A stretch of 62,382 nucleotides of DNA, counting the filler, from Collodictyon triciliatum (Eukaryota), in NCBI GenBank assembly GCA_043381765.1. It is 4 parts of 4 records of this genome, joined end to end, with 100 filler letters (N's around TTAATTAATTAA, not from the genome) between each part and the next. Parts side by side here need not be neighbours in the genome. Positions count along the whole stretch, not along the records: positions 1 to 19,360 come from JBHJMP010000315.1; 3 more parts are not named here. One strand, 5' to 3'. Shown here one piece after another: positions 1-58,507 of this stretch. Position 1 is the first letter of the stretch. Each line of letters begins with the position of its first letter. The position numbers were made by a program, and so were the translations under genes. The notes under the pieces were generated by a model. The model worked only from the letters and a program-made list of their open reading frames with translations, was not told the origin of the DNA and searched no databases.

Positions 1-813
1 CAACTACTCAGCGCAAAGGGTGTTCAAACCCGATCAGAATTGACTCAACCAAACGGGTCACGAATACCTTCCTTCAACCCAACCCGCGAGACTCGCAAAG
101 CGCCCCACTCATAAACGAACACTGTTCCATGAAAAGAAGCAAAGAAAAAAAGCAAAAAAAAAAAAAAAAAGAGCTGACTCGCGCACACTTCTCACAGGGC
201 GATTATTTCTGAGTTCAACCCGACAACAAACCCAATCATGAGCCTTTCAGCAATCTGTCATGGCCGCCTCGATCGACAGAAGAAGAGGAATGGAAAGAAA
301 GAAAAAGGACGTGTTTACAAAGGACATCAGAAGACACTGAACGAATCGTGATTGCGCAATCAAAAACGGCGATGTGTGAGACACTATTTTCCACATTTTC
401 CAACCGGACATCATCAATCCAGCCTTTGATCGCCAACGGATATCGGCATTCCTCAAAGTGGAACATCCAGAACAAGAAACATTGTTTTCATACCTATTCA
501 AGAAAATAAATGTGGAAATCATACATCTTTTATAATTCTTGGCGGCTGACTCCATAATCCGCGCAGGGAGTCTGCTCACAAAACTCGCACTGTTTGTCCA
601 GTTTCACCCGGCAGGGATCCACTACTGGTCTTTTTATCGCTTAACACTCACATTTTTTTTTTGCATCAGGGGCGAATCACTGTGCTCATTTGTTTCGCGT
701 TGGGTTGTCAAGAGGAAAATATTCATTTCTGACGCACAGATCAACACACAGAAGCACAGAGCCGTGAAGAAGGGAGGAGCAGAAGAAAGGAAAATAACGT
801 CAGCGCTTTGTTG

Positions 814-3800
814 ATGGAGGTGAGAAAGGTCAAAGTGCCTGTGTATTGGCAAGTTTGCTAGGTTTTCATATTCCCTGTTTTACTTTTTGTTTCCTTTTTG
901 TTTCCTTTTTGTTTACTTTTTGTTTACTTTCTGTTTACTTTTTGTTTACTTTTGTTTACTTTTTGTTTACTTTTTGTTTCCCTTTTGTTTCCCTTTTGTT
1001 TCCCTTTTGTTTCCTTTTTGTTTCCTTTTTGTTTACTTTTTGTTTACTTTTTGTTTCCTTTTTGTTTCCTTTTTGTTTCCTTTTTGTTTCCTTTTTGTTT
1101 CCTTTTTGTTTCCTTTTTGTTTACTTTTTGTTTACTTTTTGTTTTTTCCTGCGTGATGTATCGACTTTGACATCCACAAGGAGCAGACAAGGCCGTTTAG
1201 GAGGTCATATTTAGGCGATCGAACGAAAAATGCGTCCTACAAGTAAAGCTAAAATATCATTATCAAATATAACCTTAATCCAAAATAAATTCTAATATTA
1301 CGTCAATTTTTCTTCTTTTTGGTTTCGCTTGATTGACTATTTATCTCAACGATATATCAATTAATACTAGATATTGCTCCAACTACATTGCAACGTCAAA
1401 ATACAATATTATTAATTTTATACCAAAGAATTTGTTCGAGCAATTTCGCCGTGTTGCCAATGTTTATTTCTTGATCATATCTACGCTACAGGTTAGTTTT
1501 TCCCTTTAAATTGAGGCGTCGAAAGCCTCTTCTTACTAAACATTATTACAATAAATTAACATTTTTAAATGAAATGTGTGAATTGAATAAGAATACATAT
1601 TTCGCATAATCGTTGTGCTGATCGAAACTCCATAATGGCAACATAATTATGAGTTTTTGTTTAAACACCCCCTATAAATGAAACACTAACAAACAAAAAA
1701 AAATATCAATTGTTTATTAAAAAAAAAAATTAGCTTACAACAAATCTATCGCCAACAAACAAACTCGCTACTGCAATGCCACTTCTTTGCGTGCTGATGG
1801 CAAACATGGTAAAGGAGGCATATGAAGACTGGGTATGCTCCTTACATTCGCATGAATGCGGGCCTCTCAAAAAGAAGTAAATATTTCAAACCTATTGACA
1901 ACCCTCACCCTTTTTCATCACAAGAAACGACACGTCGCTGACAAAGAGGTCAACCACCGCAAATGCATCATTTTCAGGGACGGAATATTTAAGGAGATTC
2001 TCTGGAAAGAAGTTGTTGTGGGCGATATATGTGAACTACGCAATTTAGCAGAGGCTCCGGCAGATATGGCCATTCTAACGTCCTCAGAAAAGACTGGTAA
2101 CTTCTATGTGGAAACGTCGAATTTGGATGGGTTTGTGTCCCAATTTTTTTTCTTGCTTCAGCTGCAGTCTTTCTCTTCATATTCAGATGGGCTCTTAGAA
2201 TATACCGTTTCAACTCAGCATTGATGGATGTCTGTGTATAAATGTAGAGAAAGTAACTTGAAAGCCCAACAAGCTCTTCCAAAGTACTGCAACGTTTTTG
2301 TATCCCGCGAGAAACAAGATTTTGGAGGTATTTTGTTTCAGATTTTATTATAGCTTTAAAATTTTCGTGATTTAGTCAGTGAGACTGCGATTCTTATCAT
2401 AACTAACACTCTATTTTTATTTTATTTTTTTTACCCTCTGTTATCATCTCTCTTTTTCTATCCTTTTTTTTTATATACTTTTGTGTAGGATATATCGAAC
2501 ATGAACTTCCTAACAATCTTCTGTACGAATTCACTGGGACACTTCACAGGGATGGGAGCGACTGTAAATTTTTGAAGACACATATAATGCAGTTTTTTTT
2601 ATCTTCTTCAATTCTGAAACAGTATACACATAAATCCATTTTCTTTCTTTCCTTTTCATTGCCTTTTCACCTGGAATAATTGCGCTGTTTCAGTTTCTGT
2701 TACAGTAAAGAATCTAATTCTCCGTGGAATGGTTCTCCGCAACACTGAATATGTGTATGGTGTGGTGATATTTACTGGCCCTGATTCGAAGCTATCCATG
2801 AATTCGCAAGCTGCTCCCTCGAAACGAAGCAACTTGGAAAAGAATGTGAATGTATCCCTGGGATTTATCTTTTTCTGGTATGATACATATCGTGTAATCC
2901 TTCAATAGGGCGTCATTATATCATTCAGCATTCACAAAGCAATATTCATTATGTAACATCATCGATATAATCACTAGCCTTATACTGTTGTGCCTAATAT
3001 CCACGCTGGCTCACACCAAATGGGTTGAACAAAGAAGGTGAACTCAGATATGTAATATTCCGAGATTAGGAAAGCAATTGCATGATTCGACATAATTAAA
3101 GTATGGAACCTCTTATTTGAAGTAAAATCATTTATTATTTCTCATCTACCCAGGGGTTCATTATGGTATATGCTAAGTGTTGTTGAAGAGAGCAGCATCG
3201 AGTCAGCTTCCTCATTCGTCACTTTCTTGATTCTGTTCAACAATCTCGCTCCGATTTCGCTGTATATTTCGATGGAATTCGTTAGGTTTGAATGATGTCA
3301 ATTCTTTCTTTACTTTGATACACTGCGATGGCTTCTCTCTGCATAATTTTTCCCATTATTTGACTTTCTCGGCATGTAATAATTGCAAGATAAAAGGGTG
3401 TGGAAATTAATCAATCATTTGTTGATTATCGTTTTTACTTTACTCATCCGTAAAATAGGCTATACCAAGCTCGGCTAATAGAGTCTGATATTCAAATGTA
3501 TCACCCTGTGACAGATACTCCGGCTCTTGCGAGAACATCTAATCTGAATGAAGAACTTGGACAGATAGAGTACATATTCTCTGACAAGACTGGAACACTG
3601 ACATGTAATGAGATGGAGTTTAGAAAGTGTTCTATTGGTGGCTCCATCTATAGCCTTGGTGATTTCGAGCAGGTGGATTATTAGTCACTGTTTTTATCTC
3701 AGAAAAAGAAAAAGATGGAATGTAGTAAGACTTCCAAAGGTGAATAAACTCTAAGAAAAAAATCACCACATCATCACGCAGGTCATAAAACCAAGCATGT

Positions 3801-4148
3801 CTTACCATTCGATGCGCAGTTCGAGGATGGGAGAGTCAAGCTTTTCAGATGCAAGTGAACAACCACTTATGGATGCAATGGCTTTAATTACAAAAGAGCT
3901 TCATGAATTTTTCATGGTTTGTTTATTACTTTTTTTTCTCCAATAATGCAATCATTCAATCAGATTCTTTTCTCAAGGCTATAATTTTTAATGCTTCTGC
4001 ACACCGGCAATTACAGTGTCTCACAATTTGTCACACTGCTATTCCTGAGAAAGTGTCACCTAATAATCAAGTTGAGGAGGGCACGCCTAGCATCAAGTAT
4101 CAGTCCCAAAGCCCTGATGAGATTGCGCTCGTGACGTAAAACCTTTTC

Positions 4149-4189
<41 letters not shown>

Positions 4190-4212
4190 TTCCAATTTTT
4201 TCTTTCTTTTTT

Positions 4213-4252
<40 letters not shown>

Positions 4253-7200
4253 TATTGTATCATCAATCCAAGCATATACATACGCTATGGATATCTATCT
4301 GTAATTTTCCTATTAAATGTACCCACAGTGCTGCACACGAACTTGGATACACTGTTGTGGAACGTGACTCTGAATCACGTAAGTAATTGAGACTCTTTTT
4401 GTCTGGGATATGAATGGAACAAAATTGCTTGTAAAATGTCTTTTTTATGGTAAATTATATACTCCGAATATACCATTTCGTAGAATAAACTTGAAAGATT
4501 GATTTTCTGCTTAATTGTGTTGTTGTATTTGAGTTTATTGAATGTAATATGTAGTCGTCATTCGGTATCCAAGAGGTCAAGAAAGAGTGAAAATTCTCAA
4601 TGTGAACGAATTCAACAGCACAAGAAAGAGAATGTCTGTGATTTGTCGACGCGAGAATGGTCGAATACAGATATATTGCAAGGTTTTTTTTATAATTATT
4701 CTCTTTGATTATACTAAAACAGTTGTGTTTTGCATAAGAGACTTGGTGAACCTATTTTTTTTCTTTTTCTTTTTTTCCTATAGGGTGCTGATTCTGTGAT
4801 GTTTCAGAGAGTGTACAAAAACTCTGAATTTTATCTACAGACCAAAGCCCATGTTGACCGATTTGCGATCGAAGGACTTCGAACACTTGTGCTTGCAAAG
4901 GTCGGCACTATAAATATTGTGTACAGTGATGTTTCTTCCTGAAACAAGCAAAAAGAAAAAACTTAATAAAACGACATTGATAGAAAACTTTGGATACGGA
5001 GACATATGAACTCTGGAATCAAAAGTTTTTGCGGGCAGCCACTTCTCTTAGTGCCAGAGAAGCACAGTTGGATGAGGCAAGTCATAGAAACTCGCTCTAT
5101 TTATATCTGAATAAATGGGGGGAAAAATAACAAAGCTCGAACAATTTTACATCTAGGTTGCTGATATTATCGAAGTTAACCTTCACTTGCTCGGGGCTAC
5201 GGCGATTGAGGACAAACTGCAAGAGGGTGTCCCAGATTCTATAAAAATGCTATCCGATTCTGGTACCCTAGCCTCTTTTAGATATCAAATTACCTGGATG
5301 GTGCATATATTTGATATAAATTGAAAGATTGCCTAATCCGTTATATGTTGTATTTATGTAAGGAATCAAAGTTTGGGTTCTTACCGGTGACAAGCAGGAA
5401 ACAGCCATTAACATCGCTTATTCGACGAAGCTCTTCGACAAACAGATGGGGTTAATTGTATTAAACTATTCAGGAGAAGAGGATGTTATTCCTGGGTTAA
5501 CGCAAGCAAGACTTGAGGCTGAGCAGCTATTCGTTAGATTTTCTCCTGACTTGTTTTTTCTCTCTTTCTCCATATGCATGTTGAGAGAATCCACTGTAAT
5601 TTTCTATATCCTGAATTAGGTGGAAAATAAAAGGGCTGCGCTTGTTGTTGATGGGCGTTCTCTCGAATATATTATGGAGGACCGTGAAAAGCAGTTTTCG
5701 TTTTTGGAGGTCGCCAAGCTGTGTACATCAGTTGTGGCATGTAGAGTCAGGTTATAAAACTATGCGCTATATTCTTTTTTCTTTTGTATTGAAATCTTTA
5801 GGACTATCAAACCAATTTTAACGCAATATATTAGCCCAAGCCAGAAGGCTGGGATGGTGAGAATGGTGAAGAACCTTGTCAAACCTCAGGTGTGAATAGC
5901 CATCTGAAATTTATTTCGTTGTGGGTTGTGTCATATTTACTTTTGGTAATTAATTACTTGATAAACCGCTCAATCCAATCGTATGTGTACAGCCAATTAC
6001 GTTGGCCATCGGGGATGGAGCCAATGATGTGAGCATGATTCAAGAGGCACATGTTGGAATAGGTAACTAATACAATCAATACTGTCATCAGCAAGTGTTT
6101 ATGAGTGCGAGAAGAATTAAGAGAGTTTAAAATTCTGTCTATTGATGTGTTGCTTTTGATAACAGGTATTAGCGGAAAAGAGGGAATGCAAGCTGTACAG
6201 AGCAGCGATTATGCTATCGCACAATTTAGATTTTTGACTCGACTTCTTCTGGTAAGCAACTTCAAATATTGTGTTTAATGCCTAGCAAATCCCAGTATAA
6301 TAGATATGGATTATGTATTTTATATATATATATATATTTGACGTCATCCATTATCTAATAAATTTCATGTGCAATTGAATTAATTCCTCTCTTTGATTCG
6401 ACCATACTTGGACAGGTTCATGGGCGATGGGATTACATCCGAATGTCAAAGCTGATTTTATACTCTTTCTACAAAAATATGGCTTTCGTGTTGACTCTCT
6501 TTTACTTTGTGTTTTTGAATGGGTTCTCGGGCACCACTTTGTATGAGAGCTGGCTTGGTGCCGGGTGGAATGTAGGATGGACGCTGCTTCCAATTATGTT
6601 TGTTAGTGTACTAGATCAGGACGTCAGGTTTCATTTGCATTTGAAGTAGAACATGTGCAGACCATCTTTGTTATATGTGAAATAAAATTCCCATAGTTTT
6701 TTTAGCTGAGATTTATCTGTACTTCAGTTTTGTAACAACACCAAATGTTTAGTGCCGACTCAGCCCAGATTTATCCGATGTTGTATTATTACGGTCAAGC
6801 AAAAGTACTCCACCTGCATTTTCTTCTTTTTTGATCAAACACGAATAAATTATTAATCCTCGTATTTGTTTTTTTTTTGTTGTATTGTATTTGTCTTTGT
6901 ATTTGTCTTTGTCTTTGTCTTTGTCTTTGTCTTTGTCTTTGTCTTTGTCTTTGTCTTTGTCTTTGTCTTTGTCTTTGTCTTTGTCTTTGTCTTTGTCTTT
7001 GTCTTTGTCTTTGTCTTTGTCTTTGTCTTGTCCCTTGCTTTTGTCTTTTGTCTTGTCTTTGTCTTTGTCTTTGTCTTTGTCTTTGTCTTTGTCTTTGTCT
7101 TTGTCTTTGTCTTTGTCTTTGTCTTTGTCTTTGTCTTTGTCTTTGTTTTTGTTTTTGTTTTTTTGTTTTTTTTTTTTTGTTTTTGTTTTTTGTTTTTTGT

Positions 7201-10200
7201 TTTTTATTTTTTTCTGTTCAAAGATATCGTATTTTGACCTCTTTTTATTTTAATAAGCTCGGCTTCGACATTTGGACTTTCGTGCAATGGTCTGCAAACG
7301 CGTTCATCCATTCGCTGATAGTTTTCTTTTTCGGTATATCGTTCTTTGGGGTAACGAATTTGATTACAGCTTATTAAACTTGCTGGTATTGGCGATTCGA
7401 ATATATCTTCCCCGAGATAGTATTGCTCCCAAGCTATTTGATTCAGGAAACCTATATTGTTACATCAGGGAATCACGTCCTCTGATGGAAGAAGCGACGG
7501 ACTGTTCACAACCGGCACTATGATTAATTGCGCTTTGATGCTCACCGTTAATATGAAGGTAGAAATGAAGGGATCGATGAATCAAAAATGATTCGGCTTG
7601 AATTCCGAAATAGATTCTTCAATATTTCGACATTTCTGATAGGTATCCCTCGAAACGACGTATTGGACGCGAAACAACATGATTGTGGTCGTTGCTAGTG
7701 TCTCGCTTTGGTTCTTGTTTGTCATGGTATATTCTTTCATGGAAAGAATCAGTTCGGACTTTTTCTACGTCGGTTTCAGTGTATATTCCAAGTAAGGGCG
7801 TATACCAGTCACATGATCCAGTCAATACATTGAGGGTTTGACATGATTTTATCTCTTAATCTCTGTTGGTAATAGACCCGTTTTCTGGGTCACCTTACCT
7901 TTGACACCCATGACATGCTACTTATTCGACATCACATGGAAACTGTAAGCACCTTACCTGTATTGGAAAATAGAATAAAAATATTTTACATGATATCCTC
8001 TGTAACGTTTGTCAAAATAAAATTGTAGTGTTCGAAAAATTTACTTTCCCATGCCAGTCGATATTGCCTGTGAAATCCAGGGAGGATTTAAGTAAGAAAC
8101 GAATAAAATATGAGCTATGTCTCTGTAAGTTGTGATGTGGTGGTGTTTTAAGTTATTTTTAACACCCAATTTATTACCCAACAATATCTTTCTAACACCT
8201 TTTTCAGAAATGAGGTTGAGAATATGCTACCTGGCCTGCGTTCAAGCAAAGTTGCAGTCATAAACAGTCAAGAAGAACAATTCAGACTTCCTAGGCAGGC
8301 CTTTCATGGGATTTTCCAAACGTTTGGAGAGTAAGAAGATACATCTATAATGCGATATAGTATTTGCGATTTGTATTTTTTCTTTCTTTCCTCCTCATCA
8401 GGAGATTTTGGGGTGGATAAATGTACAATTAAAAACTATATATATCGAAGCATCCAAGCAATTTGAAACTTAACATTTTTTTTATTTATTAGAGATACAT
8501 CAAGGACTAAACAGGTTTGGATATAAGTTGTTTGTTTTTTCATCTGAAAACATAGAATTACAGCATACTAACAGGGCGGATGGTGTAGGGTAATCGGAAA
8601 TACAACAAATCCATCAGAACTCAGATGGATGCATACAACCTTGAATTTCAGAACGATGAGAGCTTGGAAAATCAATTCAGGGTAATTTTCCATGCCCAAA
8701 AAAATTGCGCTTTTATGTTTAAACTTGAACTAGAAACACCTGACAAGTTTAAGTAGACTTCCTTAGGAAACCTTTTAAAAAAACCAAGTTTTTAACTCTT
8801 TTTCACCTTTTTTTTGAATTCCTTTTTTCGTTACAATTTAATTAGTGTGTCTCAAAATCTCCATGTTGCACAAATTGAAATTAAATAAAAAAATTGTTTT
8901 TACGTATTGAGAAACATATTCGAAATATAATGTAGGATTACTATTTTATGGTTTCTGCTGGACAAACACGTGGCTCTATGGTGATGATTTTGGCCTTCTT
9001 CATTTTGTACTCTTTTGTATTCTCATCATTTGGATCCAAAGAGAATTCAGCTCCTGGATTCTTGGGAATCATTCTCTTGGTTGTGAGTGGTAAGTCTTCT
9101 ATAACCTGAGATAGCTTTTTCCAGATGCACTATTTGAATATTCATTGCATTATTTTAAAGTTACGTTCGTTCTGTTCTGCCTTACGCGGCATTTGAAACG
9201 AGTCTACCAACCGGCGTTGTTCTGCTGTCTATTTTGTGCCAGCATATTCAAAGTATACTAGAAAAATATGCACGTGTATCTTTACTGAATTACCAGTTAT
9301 CATAACATCATCAATTTCACATTAGACTGTTTCCATCACAGAGAGCGGAATCATATCAGCAACGAACTTTTCGATTATAGCTTTCATCGTGCTCAGATTG
9401 AGATTTAAATATGCTTTCATTATCGCACTTTTTGACCTTCTATTCTACCTGATATTTGTAGCGACGTAAGTTATTTTCCATTTGCTAATTTTAGCTTTGC
9501 TGTATACTAGACTTCCCCCTTACAGGATTGAATATTACAAAAAATGAATTATAGGTATGTGCAAGTTGGACTCTTAAAGGTTATCATATATGCGATTGTC
9601 CTCTTATGTATCTTTTGTTTGGGTGCTATCGGAGCTTATAAGAACGAAATTGGAATACGCAGAGATTTTCTCCTACAGAGAGAATTGAATTCAGAGAGGG
9701 AGCAAGTAAAGGTAGTTTGAATTAATGGAAGAGCATCCCGTTTTCTAGTTTCCAATTTCAAGAAAAGAAAAAATTCCTTTATTCGATTCAAAGTTCTAGG
9801 AATGAATATTATTGCTTGAGGACATGAAAAAAAAGGGATTTTGAGGTTTCTTTTTTTAAAATAAAAAACACAACTTAAAGGGTATTCTGGAGAATATGCT
9901 TCCTCCTTTTATCACAAAAAGGATGCAACTAGGCGAGAAGATTATTGCAAATAATGAGGTTGACTTTAGTTACTTGTAGTTTTTGGCTTGTATGATTATG
10001 TCATAATAATTATGAAAATTCATCCTAAAAAAATGTACTAGGAAAGAATGATGGTTTGTCCCTTAAAGTATTCATATATGTCTTGCTTAGGAGGAAGTTT
10101 CTGTACTCTTCTGCGATATCCAAGATTTTAATAAATTAGTCTTCGATCTACGACCAGGTGAGTTTGTCAGTCTTTTGGACAGAATATATTCCAGGTTCGA

Positions 10201-13200
10201 TAAACTAAGTGCAAGACACTCGGTTCGTAAAATGGAGACCGTTGGACCAACTTACATGGTAATGATAATATTATTTTGGTTTGGCTGTTTTAAAGAAGCG
10301 TCATAAGTAGATATCATTGTTTCTCGAGGTCTACATAAAAGATTGATGACGATGTAAACATAATAATAATAACAATAATAATTAATTAATTAATTAATTA
10401 ATTTATAGGCATGTGCGGGCCTTCAGGATTCCAATAAGAGCCATGCTCTTGCAGTGAGTCAGCTAGCATTTGATATGTTGGATGAAATCGCTAATTTTCA
10501 AACGTCAAAAGGAGAGCAGATTAAGTATGCTGAAATTTTCCATTTCTCTCTTTTTCTCTCTTTTTCTCTCTTTTTCTCTCTTTTTCTCTCTTTTTCTCTC
10601 TTTTTCTCTCTTTTTCTCTCTTTTTCTCTCTTTTTCTCTCTTNNNNNNNNNNNNNNNNNNNNNNNNNNNNNNNNNNNNNNNNNNNNNNNNNNNNNNNNNN
10701 NNNNNNNNNNNNNNNNNNNNNNNNNNNNNNNNNNNNNNNNNNTTTCTCTCTCTTTTCTCTCTCTTTTCTCTCTCTTTTCTCTCTCTTTTCTCTCTCTTTT
10801 CTCTCTCTTTTCTCTCTCTTTTCTCTCTCTTTTCTGTCTTTTTCTCTCTTTTTCTCTATTTTTCTATAAATTCATTCAATTTTATAAAGAGAACTGGCAA
10901 ATATTACATGGATGAACTCAACCAAGAAAAACTCAAATAGGATTCGTATCGGGATTAATACAGGTAGAGTAATATCGGGGGTGGTAGGATACAAGAAACC
11001 GCAATTCTGCCTTTTCGGAGACACTGTAATTCTTTCTAATCAAGATGAAAATTCATTACATTAACAAGCGAAACCTTTCTTTTCTGACATCCTTCAGCAT
11101 CTTTTTTTTATTATTGCTGTAACTTAATATTGTATTGTATGATTTTGGTTGATTGTTTCCCCCATTTCCCACAGGTTAACACAGCTTCTCGCATGCAATC
11201 TACTGGAATCATTTCGGAAGTACAGGTGTCTGAAGTGACTTACAATCACCTGAAAGGATTCTACGAAGGCGAATCTAGGAAAGTATGTCATTTTATTAAC
11301 ACCCAAGTATGGTCAGATTCCCCGTCGGTTGCTCATTAATAATCTAAAACGTAGGTGTATGTGAAAGGAAAAGGGGAAATGACAACATATATCATTCGAA
11401 GGAAATCCATCGGCCCTCGTTCTCTCACTATCATGAATAAGGCCGCTGCTGCCACCGTACATGTAACTTACTTTTCTCTTTCAGTTCCAGTGAAATTCAG
11501 CTTGCAAGCATCTAAAGCGTTTGTATTAGGGAGAGGAGAAAGTCGATGAAGAAGTGCATGATTCAGATACCGGTGTAATGACACATGAATTTTGCATATG
11601 TCACGAAATAGCGTGTTCCAAAAAAAAAAATACGGAAACAGCGTTTATAATTCATGACTGTCAACACCCATAGATTTTTGATCTGATTCCCCGCATCTCA
11701 AAGGAGCGTGAAGAGGTTCCGATGAATTTAGTCACTCTCCGCTTTACTGAAGACGACGAGCTGGAAGAACAGTACCAGCAAGAAGCATCTGCTATCAATG
11801 CTCGTCAGATAAGAATGTGCTTCAAGATGTTTGCGTTCGGGTAATTTGTTGGTCACTTGAAAAAGAAAAGAGTCAATTTAATTATAGAGTATATGTTATT
11901 ACCTGAACGATATATGACATGCTCTGAAAACGATTTGTAGATTTCTTGGTTCTGCCATGTTGGAAGTCGTGACAGGTGACCCAAGCGATGGAAATGTCAT
12001 CGTTGGGATGTCAGTTCGTTTAGGATTCATGTGTATGCATTAGATATCCAAATTTTGAAAGAACAGAAGAAAATGTATACCGCTTGCGCTAATCCCAGTA
12101 TCTAAATTACCTTTATATATACAATTTTATAGGCTTCCTTGCTGCTCTTTATCGTTCTGTCCATACTCAATGGTTCCAATCAAATCCACAAATGTATGCT
12201 TTCGTGGTGTATGTTTTGGAGGGTCTTGTGATTTGTTTGGTTGGTGTAGCAAAGGTTATTTATACACTTACAATCGATTGACATTTATTCATAATTTTAT
12301 TTTTTCTTCTTTTTTCTTCTTTTTTCTTCTTTTTTCTTCTTTTTTCTTCTTTTTTCTTCTTTTTTCTTCTTTTTTCTTCTTTTTTCTTCTTTTTTCTTCT
12401 TTTTTCTTCTTTTTTCTTCATTTTGACTGCCTTTTGAAAGAAAAATATATCAACAAAATAGGGAGATGCGATAGGGGAAATGACCACTTTGAGCATAATT
12501 ATGTCTCTGTACGTTGTATTTAACGTGGGAGGTGTCTCGTTTATATATGCTCTGATATCATGCTCCATCATGATATTGACATTCACCCTAATCGGCACGG
12601 GAATGGATTCCAGTCCGACTCAACCCCAAACATCTGATAATCCATTTGGGTTCTATGTTCTTTTTGTTACTTTGGCTTTAATTGTGGATGCTTCGTCTAC
12701 TAGAACGAAAGTACCATTTTCACTCATTGCGTAGCTTTTTTTCATTTTTTTTTTCATTCTCCTATTCATTAAAAAAAAATACATTCGATATTTCTAGGAG
12801 TATTACATGCGCCGCAACTTTGCGCTTACATCTTCAATCAAAGCTGAAACCAAAAAGTCTGACGATCTTCTTCATAACATGCTTCCTTCCTCTGTCATTA
12901 ATCAATTAAAGGTATGCTATTATTTTAACTAGACAATCATTAAAATATGATGATTGACATGGGAATTTTTTATGGATCGTACTTTATGCTTTAAAAGGAA
13001 CGTATTAATATCTTTGTGTTTTCATCAAGTCTGGAAGAAGCACAATTGCCGATATTCACGAGAATGTAGCAATCTTATTTTCTGACATTGTTGGTTTTAC
13101 TGACAAGGCCTCCAGAAGTGACCCAGCGAAGGTTAAAAAATTAAAATCACTCTTATAATCTAGCTCACCACAATTATGCATTTTGTATATTTAGATAAGA

Positions 13201-14466
13201 ACTTTTCAGTCTCATATTCATATTTTAAAATTTTATCATATACGTTACAGGTTGTTGAGCTCCTTTCCTCCATGTTTGGCATATTCGATAGCCTTACCGA
13301 GAAGCACGGAGTCTACAAAGTTGAGACGTATGTGTTTCCCTTGTCATTTTATGTAAATCATGAAAATTACAGATAATTGTATGCTCCTTGATTTTGAATC
13401 GTCTGGTAGATTTTTTTATGCATATCACTTTCTCATTTCATAAACACTCCTCTTTTATGATTCGTGCATGCATCAGAATCGGCGATGCATATGTCGTGGT
13501 TGCTGGACTTCCGACGATTACCAACAAGCTCGCCCCAGAAATAGAAAAAAGAACACCTGCTGAACGGATGATATTATTTGCCAAGGACATGCAAAATGCA
13601 GTAATATTTTTGTTTTTTATTTTTGCATCTTCAATCTCTGTGGAAAGAAAAATATCCTAATACTTCAGACCGTCGCATGGAAATTTCAACAAATAGTCAT
13701 TAATAATGGTATGCCTTTGTATTGTGTACGTTCAAGCATTTTCTCATTTTTGAATTGCAATTATAGCTTCGCGATATTCGCACTTATGACGGCGAAGAAG
13801 TGAGGATTCGTATTGGAATCCACCACGGCCGCCTTTTGGCTGGTACTTTATTAAATTCATGTCGAAACAGTGTTCCCGAGAACACCCAGAAAGAAAAGAA
13901 AAAAGAAGCTCTAGTGTAGTGTACAGAGAAATTAAAAAAAAATCTTTGATTTTTTGTTTCATTGATTCTATATCCATCTACATATATTCTATCCTGGCGC
14001 GAAGGTGTTATCGGGCGCACTATTTTGCGGTATGACATTTGGGGAAGTGACGTTTTGATTGCTGCATCTATGGAGTCGCGGTCAGTCGCAGGTATTCTCA
14101 AAAATGGATTCTCTTCTCGATCGATGCTATATTTATAATCAGAAGTTACAGATATACACGATTTATATTTATTATTTTAATATAGACAGATATTGGTTAG
14201 GCACATTCTGCATCATTCAATTATTGTTGCTTTTTTTTTATTCTTCCTTTCAATTTTGTCCAGGATGGTGGAGATGCTGGCTTTATTCAATTATTGTTGC
14301 TTATTTATTAAACTTTTTCCATCTGTGCGAACTTGAACTTATCCCAGGTCGAATCCATGTTACGTACGAATTCAAGAAGCAAATAGAAGGTCATTACGAA
14401 TTCGAAGATCGGGGAGAGTCAGAGTTTTCGAATGGGCGCAAAACAAAAACCTACTTTGTCAATTGA
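814..14466 (+). CDS. P4-type ATPase (phospholipid flippase) fused to a pseudo-heterodimeric membrane guanylyl cyclase; about 55 exons
   Basis: Spliced exons give [79 protein letters not shown] (D at 3583), [45 protein letters not shown] and YSFYKN. These are followed by hydrophobic TM exons, cyclase domain 1 ([38 protein letters not shown]), a second TM block and cyclase domain 2 ([32 protein letters not shown]-stop at 14466). The ATG at 814 is inferred from a 6-nt first coding exon. Confidence 0.93.
880..1148 (+). repeat. 11-mer minisatellite (TTTTTGTTTCC/TTTTTGTTTAC)n, intronic
   Basis: Direct read. Confidence 0.9.
6889..7146 (+). repeat. (TTTGTC)n microsatellite, intronic
   Basis: Direct read. 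Confidence 0.95.
10543..10857 (+). repeat. (TTTTTCTCTC)n / (TTTTCTCTCTC)n repeats flanking an N gap, intronic
   Basis: Direct read. Confidence 0.9.
12300..12419 (+). repeat. (TTTTTCTTCT)n, intronic
   Basis: Direct read. Confidence 0.9.
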
Positions 14467-14689
14467 AGTCATGATTTATAGATTTATTGCACACAAGAGA
14501 CACAACAAAAATAAACATATTGGCATGATTGAACATCTTTTTCTTGTTAAATAACTATGTTGCTCTGATGAAAAAAAAAAGCTGCTCCTATGAATATATA
14601 TATATACTATGAAGTGTGGAGTAGAACGTTCCTTACATTTATTTGCTCTCCTCCTTTGTCCCTATTATTTCGCTGTCTTTTGTTTTCAG

Positions 14690-14960
14690 TTCTTATGGCG
14701 CAGATAAACTTATTTTTTCTTTAATTTTTTCCTTTGGTTTTCTACTCTCACTAAAAAAAATATATATAGGAGAAACTTCATCAGCCAGTTATGGATTATT
14801 ATTTTTTTTTTTGAGTCTCGTTCCATCATATTTATGTACTAAAAGGGGTTACCATCTTTCGATTGGTAAACCTGGCGCACTAGTATCCAAGGTCTAATCA
14901 CATTTTTCACTGCGGTTGTGTAGTGGCGAAGGCTGCCAGGAAAGACCCGATATCCTGTTT
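14690..14960 (-). ncRNA. Candidate Fanzor omegaRNA scaffold
   Basis: Lies directly 3' of the Fanzor frame. The minus strand has GGTCT...AGACC pairing enclosing a CACT/AGTG stem, then TACTA..GGTTTACCAATC-GAAA-GATGGTAACC..TAGTA, a hairpin with a GAAA loop at 14857-14860. Confidence 0.5.
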
Positions 14961-16839
14961 TTTAGAGGAAGACGTATGCATATTTTGAATTGAAAGAACT
15001 TTCTTGAGTATTTTTTAGCGCTGTTAAAGTCCCTTGTCAAGAATACAGTTTCTTTGCTTTCTGAGCGATTGCATTCCTTACATATGAGACATCTATACAC
15101 CTTTTTTATATTTCTTTTCAGTGTCATGTATTCCAGTTCTTTTTCGCAGTTCCAACACATTTGGATGTTCTAAATTCATTTACACTAACGATTTCAAAAC
15201 GTTTGGATGGTATTTTTCGTAATTCTCTTCCGATTGCTGCCATAAAATGTTTCATCGAAGATTTTCTGCTCCAGTTTTCATACACCAGTACAACATCCTT
15301 GCCAAATGTCTTTTCGATTCTGTCCATTAACAATGGTTCACTTCATTTTGCATTAACATACTGTCTCCATCTCATCTTTCGAAAAGGTACGTGTTCATAA
15401 AATCTGGATAATTCTATCTGGCATCTTGATTTCATAGATACATATTCTCGAAATTGTTCATAATCGACCGTGCACGAATTGTGTTTACTCAGTTATGTCT
15501 AAATCGATTAAAGATACTCTTGATGTCTCAAACTGCTGATTCTCTTCAAAAGTAATAGGACCAAAAGAAACAGCACTTTGTATATCTGTTGCCATGTATA
15601 TCCCTGGAGAATTGTACTTTATTTTTTTCTCGCACAAGAGTATTTTGTGATTTTTAGTGATTTTTGCTATCATGTCTTCTTTGGTGTGCCGTGTAATCTA
15701 ATTTCTTACCTGTCTCATCCACCATGTAAACCAAATTAAACTTGCCAACATTCTCTCAAACTACAATTTTTTTTGTCGCTGATAAAGATAGCTGCTCTTT
15801 GGAAAGTTCATCTATATAAACATATTCTTGGGTCTTTTGACTATGTTTGAGATTTTGAATTTGAAATACCTTTCTTTTCAAACAATAATGACACCGCCAA
15901 GCCGTCTGTTTGTATTGTGTATTTAAAAATTGTAATCTCTCTGATGAAAGACCCTCTTCTTCATTCCAAAGAAGTTATCCTACAATTTCTCTTTGTATTC
16001 TGATATATTCTTCATTAATAATTTTTCCAGATTATATCAATAGATCTATCAAACATGCAGTATTTAGGGAAATATGACATGGTATATTGTTAGTTCTTAT
16101 AGAGATTGGTTGAAACTGTTTGGTTCCGATGTCCTCAAAAATGCGATTCATGTAAATCAGACAAGGAGTGTACTTATTTGGATTGACTTTGGCGTCATAT
16201 TCGATATCATTTACAATATCGCTGGGAATGATATGATGCAAATGCGTTATAGCCCATACTTTGTATTTTCAGGTGTTTTGATTTTCTTTGAGATGGATTT
16301 TTTTAACTTTCGAAACTCTGCCTTTTTAATAGCATCCGCAATATATTATTTTTAGCTGCTGTTTGGTTTATAAAGCACAGTAACCTCTTTACAAAATGCT
16401 CCTTGATGTTATAACGATAAGCTGTTAACATTTGCTTCGTCAAGTACAGTAATAGATGAGACAGTCCAATCAATGAAAAGCGTTCTTCTCAGGACAAAAG
16501 GACTCGAAAATCATAGATAAAACGTAATCATGTCTTTACTCATATCTGGATGTTTTAAACTTGGGTGTCTATCTTGTGAAACTACTCCGACAGTCTTTAA
16601 AACTTACAAAAAAGAACATTTTCATCGATTGTTGGGACTAGTTGTTTTGATTTCAATATGTAACATGCTGCAAACAGATAAGTGTCGGTAACCAAATTAT
16701 GACACAATAAAACCATATCGTTGGTTTTGTCATAGTCATTCGCATTCTTTACAATCGACTTTAGAGATGCTTTCGCATTTGGATAGTCTGGTTTTACCGA
16801 CTTTAGATTCACAAGCTCTAGGCGTTTTCTTTTATTCAT
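14950..16839 (-). pseudogene. Fanzor1 (eukaryotic TnpB-family RNA-guided endonuclease), decayed
   Basis: Intronless minus-strand fragments occur in order: KASLKSIV..CHNLVTDTYLF, NIKEHFVKRL, FQPISIRTNNIPCHISLNT, FKYTIQTDGLAVSLLF, YIDELS..KIVV*ENVGKFNLVYMVD..YTAHQRR, LVYENWS..VNEFRTSK, CWNC..CKEC zinc finger, TRDFNSA. There are multiple stops and frameshifts. Confidence 0.85.
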
Positions 16840-19360
16840 CTTAAAGTCTTTGTTTTATGCTTTTCCATTAGAAAACTACCGAGTTTTCGATTTTAATAAA
16901 ACTTCATTCAGTCAGTTAATTTATAAAAAAAGCTGCATAAAATCAATTCAGGTGATATTAAGCATCTACCAAGAATCTCAAAATATGCGCTTTGTGGTAA
17001 ACAAACACACCCAATTTTTATTACGAAGTGATTTGAAAAAACCGCTGAGAGTCGATTCGGCGAGTTCTAAAGGACGGCCGTATAGCAAATGCGACTGAAA
17101 GTCAAAATATCGGCCCCAAACAACATGATTACCGCCGCAATTGTGGATAGTAAGCTTTTTTTAAATGCGTGTTTGGTGGCAGGTTTATAGGTTGGGTTCT
17201 GTCTGGGCCATGACAAGGGCTTGTTTGTAATTTTTGAATTTTAATGATTTTAATAGATAAATGAAAAATATTAATTAATTACAGGAATAGAATGCGATTA
17301 TTAATTATTTTTAACCTTATTATACATTAATTATACAGTTAAATTATTCAAGTTGCTTCTTAGATTCATCAAAGCTCTTACTTTTGTCAATCCAGATTTA
17401 ATTCGGTGGTTGTCTGTGCAATAAATTGCAAAACATGGGTACACTTTCGGGCTGGGGCCGTATGTGTTGTGGAAAGGCCGGATATGGCATAGAGGGGCTG
17501 TATGTGGTATTAGATGGGGCCAAAGGTATGGTACCTGAGCAAGGTAGGTAGTTTGGACAGATTCTTTTTTTTTGTGACAGTGGGTAAGCAGGAAAGAAGG
17601 GTGCTGTGTGTATGGGTAGTTGGGGTGTTATTATAGGGACAAACGGTGGCGACTATAATGGAAAAAGTGAGGGCAAAGGGAAAAAAGCGATGCGGCGATA
17701 TAAGCAATATTATGATTACGATAAATATTGGTGTATTAGTGTAGAAGTCCTGCACCAAAAACCTTACGTGTCTTCAAGTTTTTATTATGAATAATGATAT
17801 CGCGCAAGTATGACTGGATATGGCCGGAGAACTTCTCGCATGCGCATTAATATACAATGGCGAATACATGTTGGTGCTATTATAAGGACAAAGACTCTTG
17901 TCTATATGGACAGCAAAGAAGGCCGAAAGGGAGCGCGTTGAATTTGCAACGAAGCTTGTTCTGTGCGATGAGGAGGGCTGATTGGAAAGATATAGCGGAG
18001 TTGTTTTTGTTCGTGTCGGTGGTAAGGACATCAACAGAATTGCATGGAGAAAAATGAAAGATATTGCAGGGTAATCGGTTGTTGTTTTTTTCTCTTCCTT
18101 TATTTGTTTCAAGAATAGGGTGATTTGACGTTAGATACATGGTATCATGATGAATGGATTTCATATTTTTATAAATGCTTATATGGCATGGTATGAATAG
18201 TAAGTAGGATAGGTGAGTGAACTATGCGATGTGAGGTATCAGCAATGAAAATATGAATACTTGTCTGGAGACATATATGGTAATATTCAAGTAGCTTATA
18301 TTTGAACAATTATGAATTATATATTACGCATAGTATATCGATAAATGTCATCATCTTTAATGCACTAGACCACTTTTTACATTGAAACGGGGATTTTATC
18401 ATACAATTATTGCAGCCTAACGGTTTAATCACAGATGATAGGAGTATGACAGAACTGGTTGGCCGGTATTTTCATTTTTTTAATTTATGGAAGCAAGGTT
18501 CAGAGTGAAGTTGAGAACGAGTTAGATTTAATGGACGATTGAAAGGTATTCTTATGCGCCAATTGTCAATTTTCTTGAACAGAATAATAGTACTAGTATG
18601 AGGAAAAATCAATGTAACATATTTCATACAATAAAATACATAGATAAATGGAAATATGGGTTGATATCACTTTATTGTTCGGATATATCGTATTCAAAAT
18701 TATGGGAAGGTACGAAATAAAAATGTATATTTCCAAGGGTTATCATCTCACGAGTTTATAATTATGTATATGGGAGAAATGCATTTGAGCTGTGTTTCAA
18801 TCAATTTAATATATAAATATTTATTTGATAGTAAAGTGAAAGGAATATGGCATAAAGATGTATATCTGTATTTCAGATATTTTACAAAGTATGTCGTATA
18901 CAGGTGTAGATTATGAATATATTGCCGGCATTTGTATTATTTACATGGATATTGAATGAGTAACTGGAGACGAAAATCAGAGATAACAATACAGCATGCA
19001 AAATAGAGAGGGATACTCAATAGCGAAGAATCATACAATAATATGTAGATAATTTTTTTTTGGATATCTCCCAACCCAAACGTTTCCGTCGATTATTGTT
19101 CGAAATCGAAAAGGATTCAGTATGACGAATATATCATCGAGTAATTATGTCAATAGCTGTTTCATTACGAGTGATATAAAAGAAGCGAAAAAATGATAAT
19201 GCAGCTGTTGAAAAAAAACACACGAATTTCTGCATATCGGCCATTTAATTAATTTATTGAAAATGAAATATAAATATGCGAAATATAATAATATATTTAA
19301 GATGATTTAAGTTTATCTGGAGTATGAAAATCGTGTCTGTTCAATAGCAAATTGTATTTG

Positions 19361-19460: not shown

Positions 19461-19650
19461 GAAAAAAAGAGAAAGAAAAAAAGAGAAAGAAAAAAAGAGA
19501 AAGAAAAAAAGAGAAAGAAAAAAAGAGAAAGAAAAAAAGAGAAAGAAAAAAAGAGAAAGAAAAAAGAGAAAGAAAAAAAGAGAAAGAAAAAAAGAGAAAG
19601 AAAAAAAAGAGAAAGAAAAAAGAGAAAGAAAAAAAGAGAAAGAAAAAAGG
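19461..19650 (+). repeat. (GAAAAAAAGAGAAA)n tandem repeat
   Basis: Direct read. Confidence 0.9.
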
Positions 19651-20286
19651 GAAAATAATAAGGTTTGAGAAATGTTACAGGTCATGCTTGAGAACGTAGC
19701 TAAACATGAAAGCTTGGTAGAATCCTGCTGGCAGTAGGCTCTGATGTGAAGCTGCCTATTTCCGCGAAGTATTTTTTCATCAAAACTCAAGTATGGGAAT
19801 AAATGCTCCCAAGGCACAAGCCCCCTCCAGATCATCACTGCTGCAAAGATTGACAAGGTTCCTGGTCAATTAAAGGTGACCAAAGAGAAGATAAACTCAA
19901 ACCTCAAGTTCGTGAGCCTCAGCTAGTTGGCTGGCTTCGTCAAAGTTTCCACAAAGTAGCTCCCTGACGATAACATTTTCGAAAGGCTCGTCGGTGGTTT
20001 CCATCTAAGCAATGTCTGATCGGCAGGGTTTCTGCGAGACGTTTGCACTCATTAACAAGCCAGGCCATCTTTATCCTGAGATCGGTAAAACAGTACGAAT
20101 ACCCGGTTGTTTTCTGTGTCTTTCCAATGTTATTTTTCCTTCTAGTCGTGTCCTTTCTTTTTGTCTTTTATGGTTCGTGCTGTTTAAAGCCGAATTTCCT
20201 TCTGCTGATTCATTTGTTGCGTTACATTTATTTGCATTTGATAGTGCCGATGTTGCTTTTATTTTTATTCCTTGTTGTTCTCGCAC

Positions 20287-32698: not shown

Positions 32699-37315
<4,617 letters not shown>

Positions 37316-38195: not shown

Positions 38196-48503
<10,308 letters not shown>

Positions 48504-50754: not shown

Positions 50755-53700
50755 CTTCATTGATAAATTTGTTTTCAGCGAGATTCAGCATGAAATTTGC
50801 AAACTCATCATCAAAGAGACAACGCTCTGACAGGAATGCACAATTTTCTCTCCACACGGATGCATACATTTCAGGAAGTATAAGCTCCCTCGGACGATAA
50901 TCACTATTAGTGAAATTAAATTATGAATATAGAAACTCTACCTTTTTATTTTCATCATGATGACATATAATTCATCTTTACCCATATCCTGCAATTTTAT
51001 TTGAAGGTTCATAGAATAGGATGTACGCGCTGTTTTGCTTGGTAACATTTCTTATGTATGGGTTCTTTGCTGCGTCATAAAATGTCTTTTCGATACAAAA
51101 GAATACAAAGTAATTCATAGATGCATTGCAAATTTATGTAAATTAACATGGTAATATATATGAGCATATTTGAAGATTGATCTGGATGATTTGAAAAAAA
51201 AATTACTACGATAGAATTATCATAGTTCATGTTTACGTATCTTTACTTTACCATAGGCTCCGTTCCACCAAAACAAAACTTTGGTAAGTCCTAAGAGTGC
51301 ATACGGAAGTAAGGACGTGTTTTAATGGCTTTATTTCTATATTTAGATCAAATGAAATCTAGAGAGAGAGAGAGAGATACCTTGGCATTAATCTCATCCA
51401 CAATAGTGTCGTTAAAAATAAACCATTTCAAAGAGTCTCTATCCTACAGATATTTACATAACATGAAAAAAAATATGTTTTGCTATAAATTTATCATAAT
51501 TATGATTTCTTGTACATAATGAATCAAATAATTATATTTTTTTTATGAAAAAATTCTCTAAAGAAAAAAATAAAAACCTTTATATATGAGTAATAATGGC
51601 CTGCATCAGCCGTTCCTTGGTGAACGAGGACACCCACAAGGCTATATTTGTAGTAGGACGCATCACGCGCTGGCTGAAGCAACTTTTTTTTCAAATTAGG
51701 CAAGATATTAAAGTAATTTATGGTATGGGTATGTTCTCATATTTTTTGAAACATTAATGACTGAACTGTGTTACATATACCTCTTCACGAATCGGGACCA
51801 GATTTCGTTTATTTTCTTCCCTAGCAATCCCTTCTTTTGTATACGGAAAAACATCCAACTCGTCCGGAAATGAACAAAAGGAATTCAACTATTCGATTAT
51901 AAATCTCTTTTGGAAAATGTTTGATTTTTAAGACTACATAGGAGGCGTTTGAATTAAAATAAAACCTTTATTCTCCTCATATTCTCGTAGTCAAATTCAA
52001 ATCTTTTTAGGTGTAGAATCAATGTTGATGGTAGAACCTCAAGACAGCACCTTTTGAAAGCACTCACCTATTTGTGAATTATCACATGGTTTATTAAGTA
52101 AGGAAATATGATTTGAAAGCTATCAACTTAATACTGTTTTCAATTACCTTTTTGTCACATGATTGACAGTGATATTTATTGTCACCATCAAGCGTCTCTC
52201 CTTGAACAAACGACTCCATAGATTCTTCAAGCTTATTCTTCCCATTTACATCGATGCTGAGGAGATAAAAGCTTTCCTTTCTTTCGCTAACATGCTCGCA
52301 TTCTTTGCTGATGATTTGGTTGCTGAAGGACCCTCCAAAATGCGTTCTCAACAAATCCTCCTTTGTATGGTTATATGGTGTTGTTATAAAATTCATATAA
52401 ATTAAAAATCTATTCATTGGTTGTATTATCTATGAGTGCATTAATAAATCTCCCAATCAATCAAGTTCACTTGAGGTTTTCCTTTAAGTTGATTCTCAAT
52501 GTTATCAAAAAGTCCATTGAAAAACTCGACCTGTTGATAAGAATGTATTAAAATATAGATAAACTCCATGCATATCGTCAGAAATAACAAAAAAAAATTC
52601 CTTTCAATTTCGGCAGGGTGCGAATAATAGTATCTAGCAAAGTAACTGGTCATTATCATTACCACATCCATTTGCAATCTGCAATCGATTGATTTCCCTG
52701 TACAATCTCGGTAATTTGAGCACAATTCAATTGAGTCATAGAATTTCTTTTCACTTTCCATCAGGAAGGAAAACATCAATTGAAGATAATACAGTGTTGC
52801 ATCTGGATTTTGTATCTCGTTTTCAGATTCAACCTACATATGACTGCGTGAGTGTTGTGAATGACATGCATTCAAAATTATTCGAATGCAAAATCCCAGC
52901 CAGATGGAGATATGACCTCTGTTTGGTCGTCGTCAGTAGGATTGATATTCGTTTGATAGGGAATACGCTGTGAAGGAACCTGAAGGATTTCATTTCTGAA
53001 AGCCTTTGTCATAAATAATTGCTGAATTAAAGAGTTCATATAGCAAGTCGCTCCTTGATTTTTCAACCCGACATATCCAGATTGCGGCTTTTCCAAGTGA
53101 AATGGATTATAATCCCATATGTTTGTGGATTGGTCTAAGAGAAAGTAAAAAAAGACAAAGATGCCTTAAAGGGGGAAAAAGAGACACAGCTGAGACATCA
53201 AAAGATGTAAAATATATTATGTTTTATTTATATGACATATTTTTGTTAAAAATCATTGAAAATATAAATAAATAATTGATGTCAAGATATCCTTAACATT
53301 TTATATATTTATACAGAAATTTATTAAAGTGTGGGATTACTACCTTGCATAAATTTATGAATTAATTCGCCAATAAGCTCAAAGTTTTTTTGCGATAACT
53401 TTGATATGGTCAATAAAAGGTCAAATGCACTTTTTCGGCTTTGAGGAGTCTTACACTTTGGTGGTGCAAGTTCGTCATTTGATTCACAAGTTGCGACATT
53501 AAAAAGACAATCAAGTAATAGATGATTTGTCAACATTTTTCTGTAAAAAAAAAAAAAAATTGAAAAAAATTGAAAAATGTTCATCATACCCAATATTAGG
53601 ATGTAATAGCCTCAAGAATTAAAAAAAAAAAAAAAGAATGACACAAAATATAGGGAATGTATCATACTCGTTTTCTTCCCCCAAGATTTGATTGAATGGA

Positions 53701-56700: not shown

Positions 56701-58507
56701 TAATTTGTTTCCTTTGGTGCTGCTGTGCACCTTTCTCGGTGTTGCACTTGGTAATGTGGCCAGATTGGTGTCATATGTGACAAGTTGAAACTACAAGACG
56801 AGTTAATAAACAACTATCATATTTGAAATATTTGAGCAGATCCGAGACCTAAATTGGTTGAAATGAAAATCAATCAATTTTCATGGAGAGAATAATACCT
56901 CTATTAATTCCAAAACACGAACTAATTTCATTTTTTCTCGGCTAGCTTCAGCGTCTATGACACCATCAGCGCTTATCCGACGAAAGCAATCTCTGATTAT
57001 ATCCATGACTTGCTCAACAAAAAGTGTAATTTTATTTAAATTACAGGCTTGACTTGGGTCGATAACCTGAAAAGTACAATCATTTCGTATTTTTGAATAG
57101 GATAGATTATTCTATGTGATGTTTCATGAAGAACCTAATAAAAAAAAGTACAAGATGTATCCTTGTGATGTATTAAAAAAAACTGGAATAAAGAAATGAC
57201 AAATTGTAAGAGAAAGCGCTATATAATATGGAGACAAGTATATATTCTTAAACATTACATTATATTCCATGCACAAATCCCGAATGGCTGTTTTTGCCAC
57301 TGTCGCGTCCATTGATTCTGTCGCAATCGCCCAAAACAAATCCAACCCGAAATTGTTTGTAATCGATGGCAGTATTGTATCGTGTCCTATTTCTTCTATC
57401 GTAATCCTTTGCAGGGACAAAACCATAATTAGTTAGAATATTTTCAAGGTCTATATGGTAAAAAAAAAAAATTGAAAAAAGGGATAAGATGTGAAGGCTA
57501 ATCCAAGAGAAAAAAAAAAGACAATACCAAGCAACCCTTACATTAGATAGCAATGAAACATAGAGTATGATATCATGTTGAATTCGGTAGGTTTTAGTTG
57601 GAGGATGTTGGACTGGAAGATATGCCCGAAGGGAAAAAACTAAATCGAGATCGTAAAAGTGGACTCGGTAAAGAAATTATCTTTAAATTTTGGAATATTG
57701 GTATAACATTGAAATGAAGTCAGTCATGGTTTGTGTTACTTTTCTGTCGACTTCCCGCCCGAGCTTCAGAAACCACTCAAACAGCATCAATGGCTCTTCT
57801 TTTGACACTGATTCTCTAAAATACATATGAAAAAGCTAAGTAATACCACTGGTGCATCGGTATGTCCCCCATTTATGTCAGAATTATATAAATGAATCTG
57901 AATAAAAGGACATTTTTATATTGGTATGTATCCACAAATTTTAAAAGAGTGAGAAGATAATACATGTCATTATTATCATATGAGTGGGATAATATTGATA
58001 GATTTTGAAGTATTGCACAAACGTCACAAATGCATTCCATAGAACATTGATGTTTAATTCTTTTATAGGTATCTATGAAATAGAATCAACATATCAATAA
58101 ATACAAATGAAGGGCACGATTCACAAAAATAATAATTTGGCCCGTAAGTAATCAGAAAATTGTATTGGAAAGCTATTTCCTAATAAAAATAAATAAAAGT
58201 GAATAATAGTTCACCAAATAGAAAAGGAATAGAATATCCAAAAATTGGATGAGGATAACGTTAACAATATAAACATACGCTCAGGCGTTTTATCAGGACT
58301 AACAAAAGCTGAAGGATAGAATCAATTCGGTCTTTGTGCGATACTTTTCCAATAATTATGCTTTCATGTGAAACATGACTCAACCTGTGTGTAACCTATA
58401 CAGATTTTTCGGAATATTAGTATTTCTATAATATGTCAATACTGTGAGGTTCCTTAATCAATGACAGCGACTAAATCCATATAAAAAAGGATTTAGAAAG
58501 TAAGATG

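Follow-up and report, generated by a model that had tools for sequence, protein, structure and literature searches.

Fanzor1 proteins are relatives of bacterial TnpB that occur in eukaryotes and viruses. Judging from the Fanzor1 proteins that have been solved and tested, an intact member would bind a guide RNA that derives, by transcription, from the 3' end of the mobile element carrying the gene and would cut matching DNA beside a short motif, an activity thought to help the element persist. As far as the available text of two surveys goes, Fanzor1 genes occur with Mariner/Tc1 and other DNA transposons and form multi-copy families that include degenerate derivatives and derivatives without an open reading frame (ORF), such as the 'ghost' Spu-1 (PMC10530073, PMC10432273). 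The former survey gives, in the same portion of text, 3655 unique putative nucleases (Jiang 2023, PMC10530073). Two features are named as Fanzor hallmarks in the accessible part of another study, the D-P-G motif of RuvC-I and an alternative RuvC-II glutamate located six residues ahead of the zinc finger (Yoon 2023, PMC10711439). The rearranged RuvC-II site is likewise described in the text of Jiang 2023 (PMC10530073) that is available, and the corresponding part of Saito 2023 (PMC10432273) names the active site of SpuFz1 as D383, N385, E541, and D606. Here, we analyze a stretch of 62,382 nucleotides (nt) from Collodictyon triciliatum (GCA_043381765.1), hereafter the window, which is AT-rich (G+C of about 30-39%) and contains several runs of N. 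In its JBHJMP010000315.1 part (positions 1-19,360), the minus strand at 14927..16839 almost certainly carries one inactivated copy of a Fanzor1 gene.

Like the Fanzor1 transposons surveyed in the available part of PMC10530073 and the 'ghost' Spu-1 as described in that of PMC10432273, this relic belongs to a multi-copy family with degenerate copies. It differs from the systems in these same portions of the two surveys in its host, a freshwater eukaryote with a P4-ATPase/guanylate-cyclase fusion gene. Fanzor1 nucleases, the rearranged site, the transposon link, and degenerate copies are all in print, and the relic is in this respect fairly ordinary. It is slightly more than routine because its family is akin to giant-virus genes and because there is evidence for many siblings that are less broken. 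The relic serves as a marker, indicating that this organism or a close freshwater relative carries a sizeable Fanzor1 family whose nearest intact kin are giant-virus genes.

Identity and decay of the Fanzor1 copy

The copy was identified through an intact relative. An HMMER search among 1.84 billion representatives, with a piece of 72 amino acids (aa) from the window as the query, yielded 159 matches at E<=0.001 and was the source of P0005, an intact protein of 634 aa. Compared with the window by tblastn, P0005 aligns in four colinear minus-strand segments (Table 1), which cover its residues 2-586 at positions 16833-15014 with a sum E-value of 1.5e-73. A family profile built from 42 matches of 560-800 aa was run against the 2547 six-frame stop-to-stop pieces of the window. 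It recovered eight colinear minus-strand pieces, all within 14897-16854, with E-values from 1.6e-24 to 2.8e-6; the best piece elsewhere in the window had an E-value of 0.35. By these sequence comparisons, the match is far above chance level, and the window holds a single copy. A candidate second Fanzor remnant at 56806-57177, the best tblastn match outside 14800-17000 at E<=10 (E-value of 0.017), was rejected, since the family profile gave it no support.

In a frameshift-aware alignment of the window minus strand to P0005, which also served to count the lesions, the copy spans residues 1-616 (16839-14927), in agreement with the length of about 620 codons given in the original prediction. Identical residues occupy 254 of the 594 aligned positions (42.8%). 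The homology is clear as far as ~15014 and faint past this point.

The assignment to Fanzor1, also proposed earlier, is confirmed by comparison with solved structures. At E<=1, the PDB matches of P0005 are SpuFz1 (9e-37, over nearly the whole length), PpFz1 (7e-34), and GtFz1 (7e-16), with no other chain. The top PDB match of the 72-aa window piece itself is PpFz1, with an E-value of 0.0055. Through P0005, the copy shares with SpuFz1 (8gkh) and PpFz1 (9cf0) the same domain order along the whole length, and the blocks common to them are N-x-x-E-H-F, T-D-G, D-P-G, G-x-W-S, E-x-x-T-S before the zinc finger, and R-D-x-x-S. Unlike these two proteins, the window copy is broken and has Asn in place of the RuvC-I Asp, and its direct similarity to them, as expressed by the above E-value, is weak.

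Three-frame translation recovered on the minus strand all motifs that had been named from the sequence. In an alignment of 26 relatives used to assess conservation, ten columns are invariant: W294, D372, P373, G374, Y456, R462, G488, G496, W498, and E530 (here and in Table 1, such numbers are positions in P0005). The invariant columns correspond to features in print, namely the D-P-G motif and the alternative glutamate of PMC10711439 and the rearranged RuvC-II site of PMC10530073. This glutamate, said in the original prediction to lie in a rearranged position just before the zinc finger, is indeed kept there, in agreement with the same parts of the two papers (PMC10711439, PMC10530073). It belongs to the N-E-F-R-T-S-K motif, which also retains the near-invariant T533 and S534 and is directly followed by a frame change at ~15151-15163. 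The six-residue spacing from the glutamate to C-W-N-C fits only across that frame change. In the RuvC-III block, R580, D581, and N583 are kept, and N587 is replaced by Lys.

The copy is dead and cannot make the protein: the alignment to P0005 contains ten frame changes and four in-frame stops, and a single open nuclease frame is not present. Two of the stops fall within conserved motifs. One of them, a TAG, replaces the invariant W294. The other lies in the RuvC-I block, where the catalytic aspartate D372 has become Asn (15752-15750) and P373 has become Val, with the TGA located two codons upstream. The loss of the catalytic aspartate, the TGA at 15756-15758, and the frameshift at about 15160 leading into C-W-N-C had all been read correctly from the sequence beforehand, as had the inactive state of the gene.

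The decay of the copy is not extreme. Six of the ten invariant positions are kept, the lost ones being W294 (stop), D372 (Asn), P373 (Val), and G496 (Glu), and so are 19 of the 20 near-invariant positions; the alternative glutamate, both cysteine pairs, and the RuvC-III aspartate survive. Such retention implies descent from a working gene, and the ancestor was therefore a normal Fanzor1. The N-V-G sequence in place of D-P-G is taken as decay of a family member and not as a sign of another family. The most natural scenario is that the ancestral gene encoded an RuvC nuclease of ~630 aa, presumably RNA-guided, which originated in a mobile element, and that this copy then decayed, probably neutrally.

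Sibling copies and giant-virus relatives

Eleven public runs, mostly metagenomes, contain small shares of the region of the relic, and the best-matching run may be the window's own source. Contigs of four of these runs were compared with this region at a likeness of at least 85%, which gave 94 contigs for X1, 26 for X2, 135 for X3, and 416 for X4; most are 85-95% alike, and a few are at least 99% alike. The sibling cover extends over ~14838-17517, that is, the frame plus ~680 nt upstream, which makes a repeated unit of ~2.7 kb. In X4, the contig cover remains high, at 31-395 per bin, as far as bin 17384-17517 and is 0 past it. The stretch upstream of the frame counts as part of this unit because sibling contigs cover it. 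Over 17197-17530, which takes in the upstream border of the unit and the start of the unique flank, some contigs do not differ from the window, so that those runs contain this organism or one very close to it.

Sibling sequences differ from the window copy at many of its breaks. Among the 12 listed of 72 indel rows, sibling indels occur within 12 nt of six of the ten frameshift sites, and all six are of frame-preserving length. Every contig that covers the stop at 15345 differs there from the window. Thus, several lesions are private to the window copy. Several X4 contigs omit 65-249 nt internally with ends unlike those of introns and represent deletion derivatives. The family is large and heterogeneous, since this organism, or one closely related to it, has numerous copies that have diverged or undergone deletion; the sibling contigs indicate that a Fanzor family exists in this organism or its close kin. 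They lend indirect support to the original prediction of such a family in this genome. In one X4 contig, the last intron of the host gene is missing (14088 joined to 14345, GT..AG ends), which suggests that X4 contains RNA. None of the eleven runs is recorded as RNA, X4 and X10 being RNA by guess, and for transcription of family members the contig is only a hint.

P0005 and its kin were located at ten metagenome loci and five IMG/VR loci, and all relatives of known context reside on giant-virus contigs (IMG/VR, 57-254 kb). Their neighbours there include mRNA capping enzyme, the ribonucleotide reductase small chain, MutS, SNF2-type and DEAD helicases, and DUF5755. P0140 has a relative of 42% identity on another giant-virus contig. 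Look-alike clusters of P0005 in the Atlas are 92-100% viral (Nucleocytoviricota), and the giant-virus 'transposase' family that P0005 represents bears the Atlas labels DUF8286 and Cas12f1-like TNB. In single-protein scans, P0054 and P0083 had no relative in the viral collection.

Pairwise comparison of loci from different contexts revealed DNA homology bounded by inverted ends of 32-33 nt located ~3.3 kb apart. The enclosed element is a Tc1/mariner-like transposon that contains a divergent 343-aa transposase with DDE_3 and helix-turn-helix (HTH) domains and an intact 634-aa Fanzor1-like gene; locus L006 has the Fanzor part without the transposase. The stop codon of the viral Fanzor gene is ~46 nt from the element end. 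The last ~170 nt of the viral elements have a conserved fold with 52 predicted pairs, seven of them with compensatory changes among five sequences, and this fold is a good candidate for a guide-RNA scaffold that would overlap the coding end.

These viral proteins are the closest intact relatives of the window copy, which they match in length and in the start with a basic N-terminus and with which they share a supported clade. The viral copies are intact, intron-free, and paired with a transposase, inverted ends, and a structured 3' end. In contrast, none of these features of the viral elements was found at the window copy, which resides in cellular DNA. DNA similarity between the window and the viral elements is limited to the most conserved coding part (15006-15388, 68% over 209 nt), and the viral inverted ends and 3' ends gave only chance short matches to window DNA. 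With the transposase and a small ORF of the viral element as queries, no transposase remnant was found in the window (best tblastn E-value of 0.66), and none of the 52 six-frame pieces of at least 30 aa from 16840-19360 matches Pfam. Neither terminal inverted repeats (the longest inverted match between the flanks is 12 nt, E-value of 0.24) nor 30-nt inverted repeats such as those around SpuFz1 were found at the copy; at the borders of the repeated unit, the best inverted alignment was equalled by 212 of 300 shuffles. The omega RNA scaffold would be expected at 14838..14926. The predicted fold of the 3' tail (14835-15020) has a z-score of -0.44, with 63 of 200 shuffles folding as well, and the whole window contains no Rfam family and no tRNA.

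Competing explanations

Several observations weigh against the reading of this locus as a decayed copy from a Fanzor1 mobile element. Nine fragments of the window compared with local Pfam gave nothing significant, all matches being at chance level and below the cutoffs, and the 91-aa zinc-finger piece has no PDB match even at E<=10. Family membership is therefore reached via one transitive step through metagenomic relatives. The expectation that the stitched translation would match nuclease profiles held for the family profiles and the solved structures and failed for local Pfam on the fragments. In word-index protein searches with window pieces, no long sibling was found; one search gave seven candidates, none of which scored. 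A further protein search returned P0166 as the sole sibling piece, with 143 aa and 79% identity. Some siblings could belong to related species instead of this genome. Finally, neither element ends nor a target-site duplication, a transposase, or a guide RNA was found at the locus, so that the designation as a mobile element comes from the relatives and the copy number.

The relic may mark a Fanzor1 lineage that is still living and is carried by a Tc1/mariner-type transposon from giant viruses to their freshwater protist hosts and back, with intact, possibly transcribed siblings in this organism. We consider this extended scenario rather unlikely, the hints toward it being the viral context of the relatives, the siblings that are in frame at the break sites, and the spliced X4 contig together with the 416 family contigs of that run. 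If the scenario is true, the intact copies would represent an RNA-guided nuclease naturally adapted to both virus and host. An intact sibling, if it exists, would provide one more candidate editing nuclease and a concrete case in which to study how giant viruses and their hosts exchange RNA-guided nucleases.

Another possible source of the remnant is giant-virus DNA that entered the host genome, as an endogenised fragment or as a virus-borne transposon, in place of an old resident host transposon. The giant-virus location of every relative of known context and the composition of the look-alike clusters agree with such an entry, and the Tc1/mariner-like transposon on which the viral copies ride could move between genomes. 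In a quick maximum-likelihood tree of 49 rows, the window read-through, with X at every break, falls on a long branch within a clade of 14 rows that has a support of 97 in the Shimodaira-Hasegawa-like approximate likelihood ratio test (SH-aLRT) and holds all five viral rows. However, this clade also contains eight unlabelled rows, and within it the window copy is not nested in a viral subclade but branches off at a fork that is not resolved. With the viral proteins it shares no more than ~41-43% identity, and P0054 and P0083 lack a counterpart in the viral collection. The family is multi-copy in the manner of a host transposon, no further viral gene turned up among the window pieces searched, and the flanks are intron-rich cellular genes. 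Entry from a giant virus is improbable.

It is very improbable that the relic derives from a TnpB-like lineage other than Fanzor1, namely Fanzor2, an IS607-type TnpB, or a bacterial contaminant. Pfam detects in the relatives only the shared Cas12f1-like TNB zinc-ribbon domain (PF07282), which is weak at the zinc finger in five of eight relatives at E<=0.1 and above the curated cutoff in P0054 alone. Viral Fanzors, moreover, bridge Fanzor2 and the remaining Fanzor1 in the available part of PMC10711439. Against such an origin, the structural matches of P0005 at E<=1 comprise the three Fanzor1 proteins and no Fanzor2, TnpB, or Cas12 chain, and the alignment with SpuFz1 takes in the long N-terminal part. 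The relatives examined have no adjoining serine-recombinase gene and instead have the DDE_3 transposase, and the context of the relic is eukaryotic nuclear DNA.

The idea that the gene is alive, its breaks being introns, a variant genetic code, programmed frameshifting, or assembly errors, is scarcely credible. The host genes of the window do have many short introns, ~100 nt of extra DNA are present at 15493-15659, three of the four in-frame stops are TGA, and reading TGA as sense raises the number of ORFs of at least 150 aa from 11 to 73 (from 0 to 1 in a shuffled control). However, nine of the ten frame changes have no extra DNA between the flanking homologous blocks. Because the blocks are spaced as the profile requires, with the exception of the ~100 nt mentioned, introns cannot explain the frame changes. 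The neighbouring P4-ATPase/guanylate-cyclase gene provides a control: of the 42 stops in its longer segments, 39 fall opposite alignment gaps (introns), and no residue is aligned with any of the nine TGA triplets that these segments contain. A variant genetic code was rejected on this ground, and the ORF excess is probably a compositional effect. Near-identical independent contigs of other runs reproduce the sequence and span lesion sites ungapped (15601-15828 in X2 record 11, 15012-15197 in X1 record 2; one of these runs may be the source of the window itself), whereas diverged siblings differ exactly at the break sites. Invariant residues are struck by stops and substitutions. Introns, a variant code, and assembly error do not account for the lesions, which largely refutes a living gene.

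Genomic surroundings

The context of the relic is eukaryotic nuclear DNA with cellular neighbours. On the plus strand, a P4-ATPase/guanylate-cyclase fusion gene occupies 1988-14460, where 34 segments align to P0157, a transcript-derived protein of 1941 aa. Many of its short exons are 70-90% identical to P0157 and stop-free, and the closest relatives of one exon, 86% identical to it, carry PF16212, PF00702, PF13246, and PF00211. The gene is intron-rich and joins a P4-type (phospholipid-flippase-like) ATPase to guanylate/adenylate cyclase domains. Alveolates are known to have fusions of this architecture. The relic and this working gene are arranged tail to tail, the relic being located in the gap just past the 3' end of the gene, ~470 nt from its last aligned exon. 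Other neighbours, split by short introns (Table 1), were identified by a search that covered 112 of the 182 pieces of at least 75 aa, overlapping opposite-strand pieces and the Fanzor pieces being omitted.

Table 1. Positions of the relic, its motifs and lesions, the neighbouring exons, and the viral elements (window positions unless a locus is named)
Feature	Position	Strand or frame	Remarks
Fanzor1 pseudogene, entire decayed frame	14927..16839	-	ATG 16839-16837 to last alignable codons
tblastn segment 1	16833-16354	frame -1	P0005 query
tblastn segment 2	16268-15618	frame -2	P0005 query
tblastn segment 3	15498-15160	frame -1	P0005 query
tblastn segment 4	15163-15014	frame -3	P0005 query
K-A-S-L-K-S-I	16773-16753	-	translation; holds near-invariant K24
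N-I-K-E-H-F	16410-16393	-	translation; N148
I-Q-T-D-G	15915-15901	-	translation; T318, D319, G320
RuvC-I remnant	15744..15758	-	I-V-V-stop-E-N-V-G-K-F; TGA 15758-15756, then E-N-V-G against family x-D-P-G
Y-E-N-W-S, counterpart of family G-x-W-S	15268..15282	-	G496 replaced by Glu; W498 kept
N-E-F-R-T-S-K	15160..15180	-	alternative RuvC-II Glu (E530) kept at 15177-15175
Zinc-finger cysteines	15071..15157	-	C-W-N-C 15157-15146; C-L-I-C-K-E-C 15091-15071; aligned to C-x-x-C pairs of P0005
RuvC-III motif R-D-F-N-S-A	15017..15034	-	R-D-F-N at 15034-15023; Asp kept at 15031-15029
Frame changes	near 16603, 16515, 16342, 16268, 16033, 15927, 15842, 15664, 15486, 15151	-	alignment to P0005
In-frame stops	TGA 16491-16489; TAG 15982-15980; TGA 15758-15756; TGA 15345-15343	-	alignment to P0005
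Upstream non-coding stretch of repeated unit	16840..17517	-	sibling contig cover
Decayed 3' tail, likely end of repeated unit	14838..14926	-	sibling cover stops between bins 14704-14837 and 14838-14971
3'5'-cyclic-nucleotide phosphodiesterase exons	35646-37277	+	split by short introns
EF-hand protein exon	40193-40486	-	split by short introns
Ubiquitin C-terminal hydrolase exons	52097-53165	-	split by short introns
Tc1/mariner-like transposon	L005 2631-5951; L003 2637-5952; L001 174-3503; L004 2631-5951		inverted ends
Structured 3' end of viral elements	L001 3330-3503; L003 5780-5952; L004/L005 5779-5951; L006 2482-2656		gene 3' end and right inverted end

Two microsatellites located 7 kb apart, one with a 10-nt T/C-rich unit at 12284-12424 and one with a 14-nt A/G-rich unit at 19461-19662, bracket the region of the relic. 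The two show ~70% mutual complementarity and are probably unrelated tracts of low complexity; as inverted arms of an element they were rejected, being microsatellites. A further repeat is found within the last intron of the ATPase-cyclase gene. The summed depth at 14168-14301 reaches very high values in each of the four runs (390.8 at most, in X4), with loose ends flanking the element at 14232-14235 and 14263-14284. This segment overlaps a pair of 36-nt direct repeats (14210-14245 and 14280-14315) and is a separate high-copy repeat, perhaps a miniature transposon.

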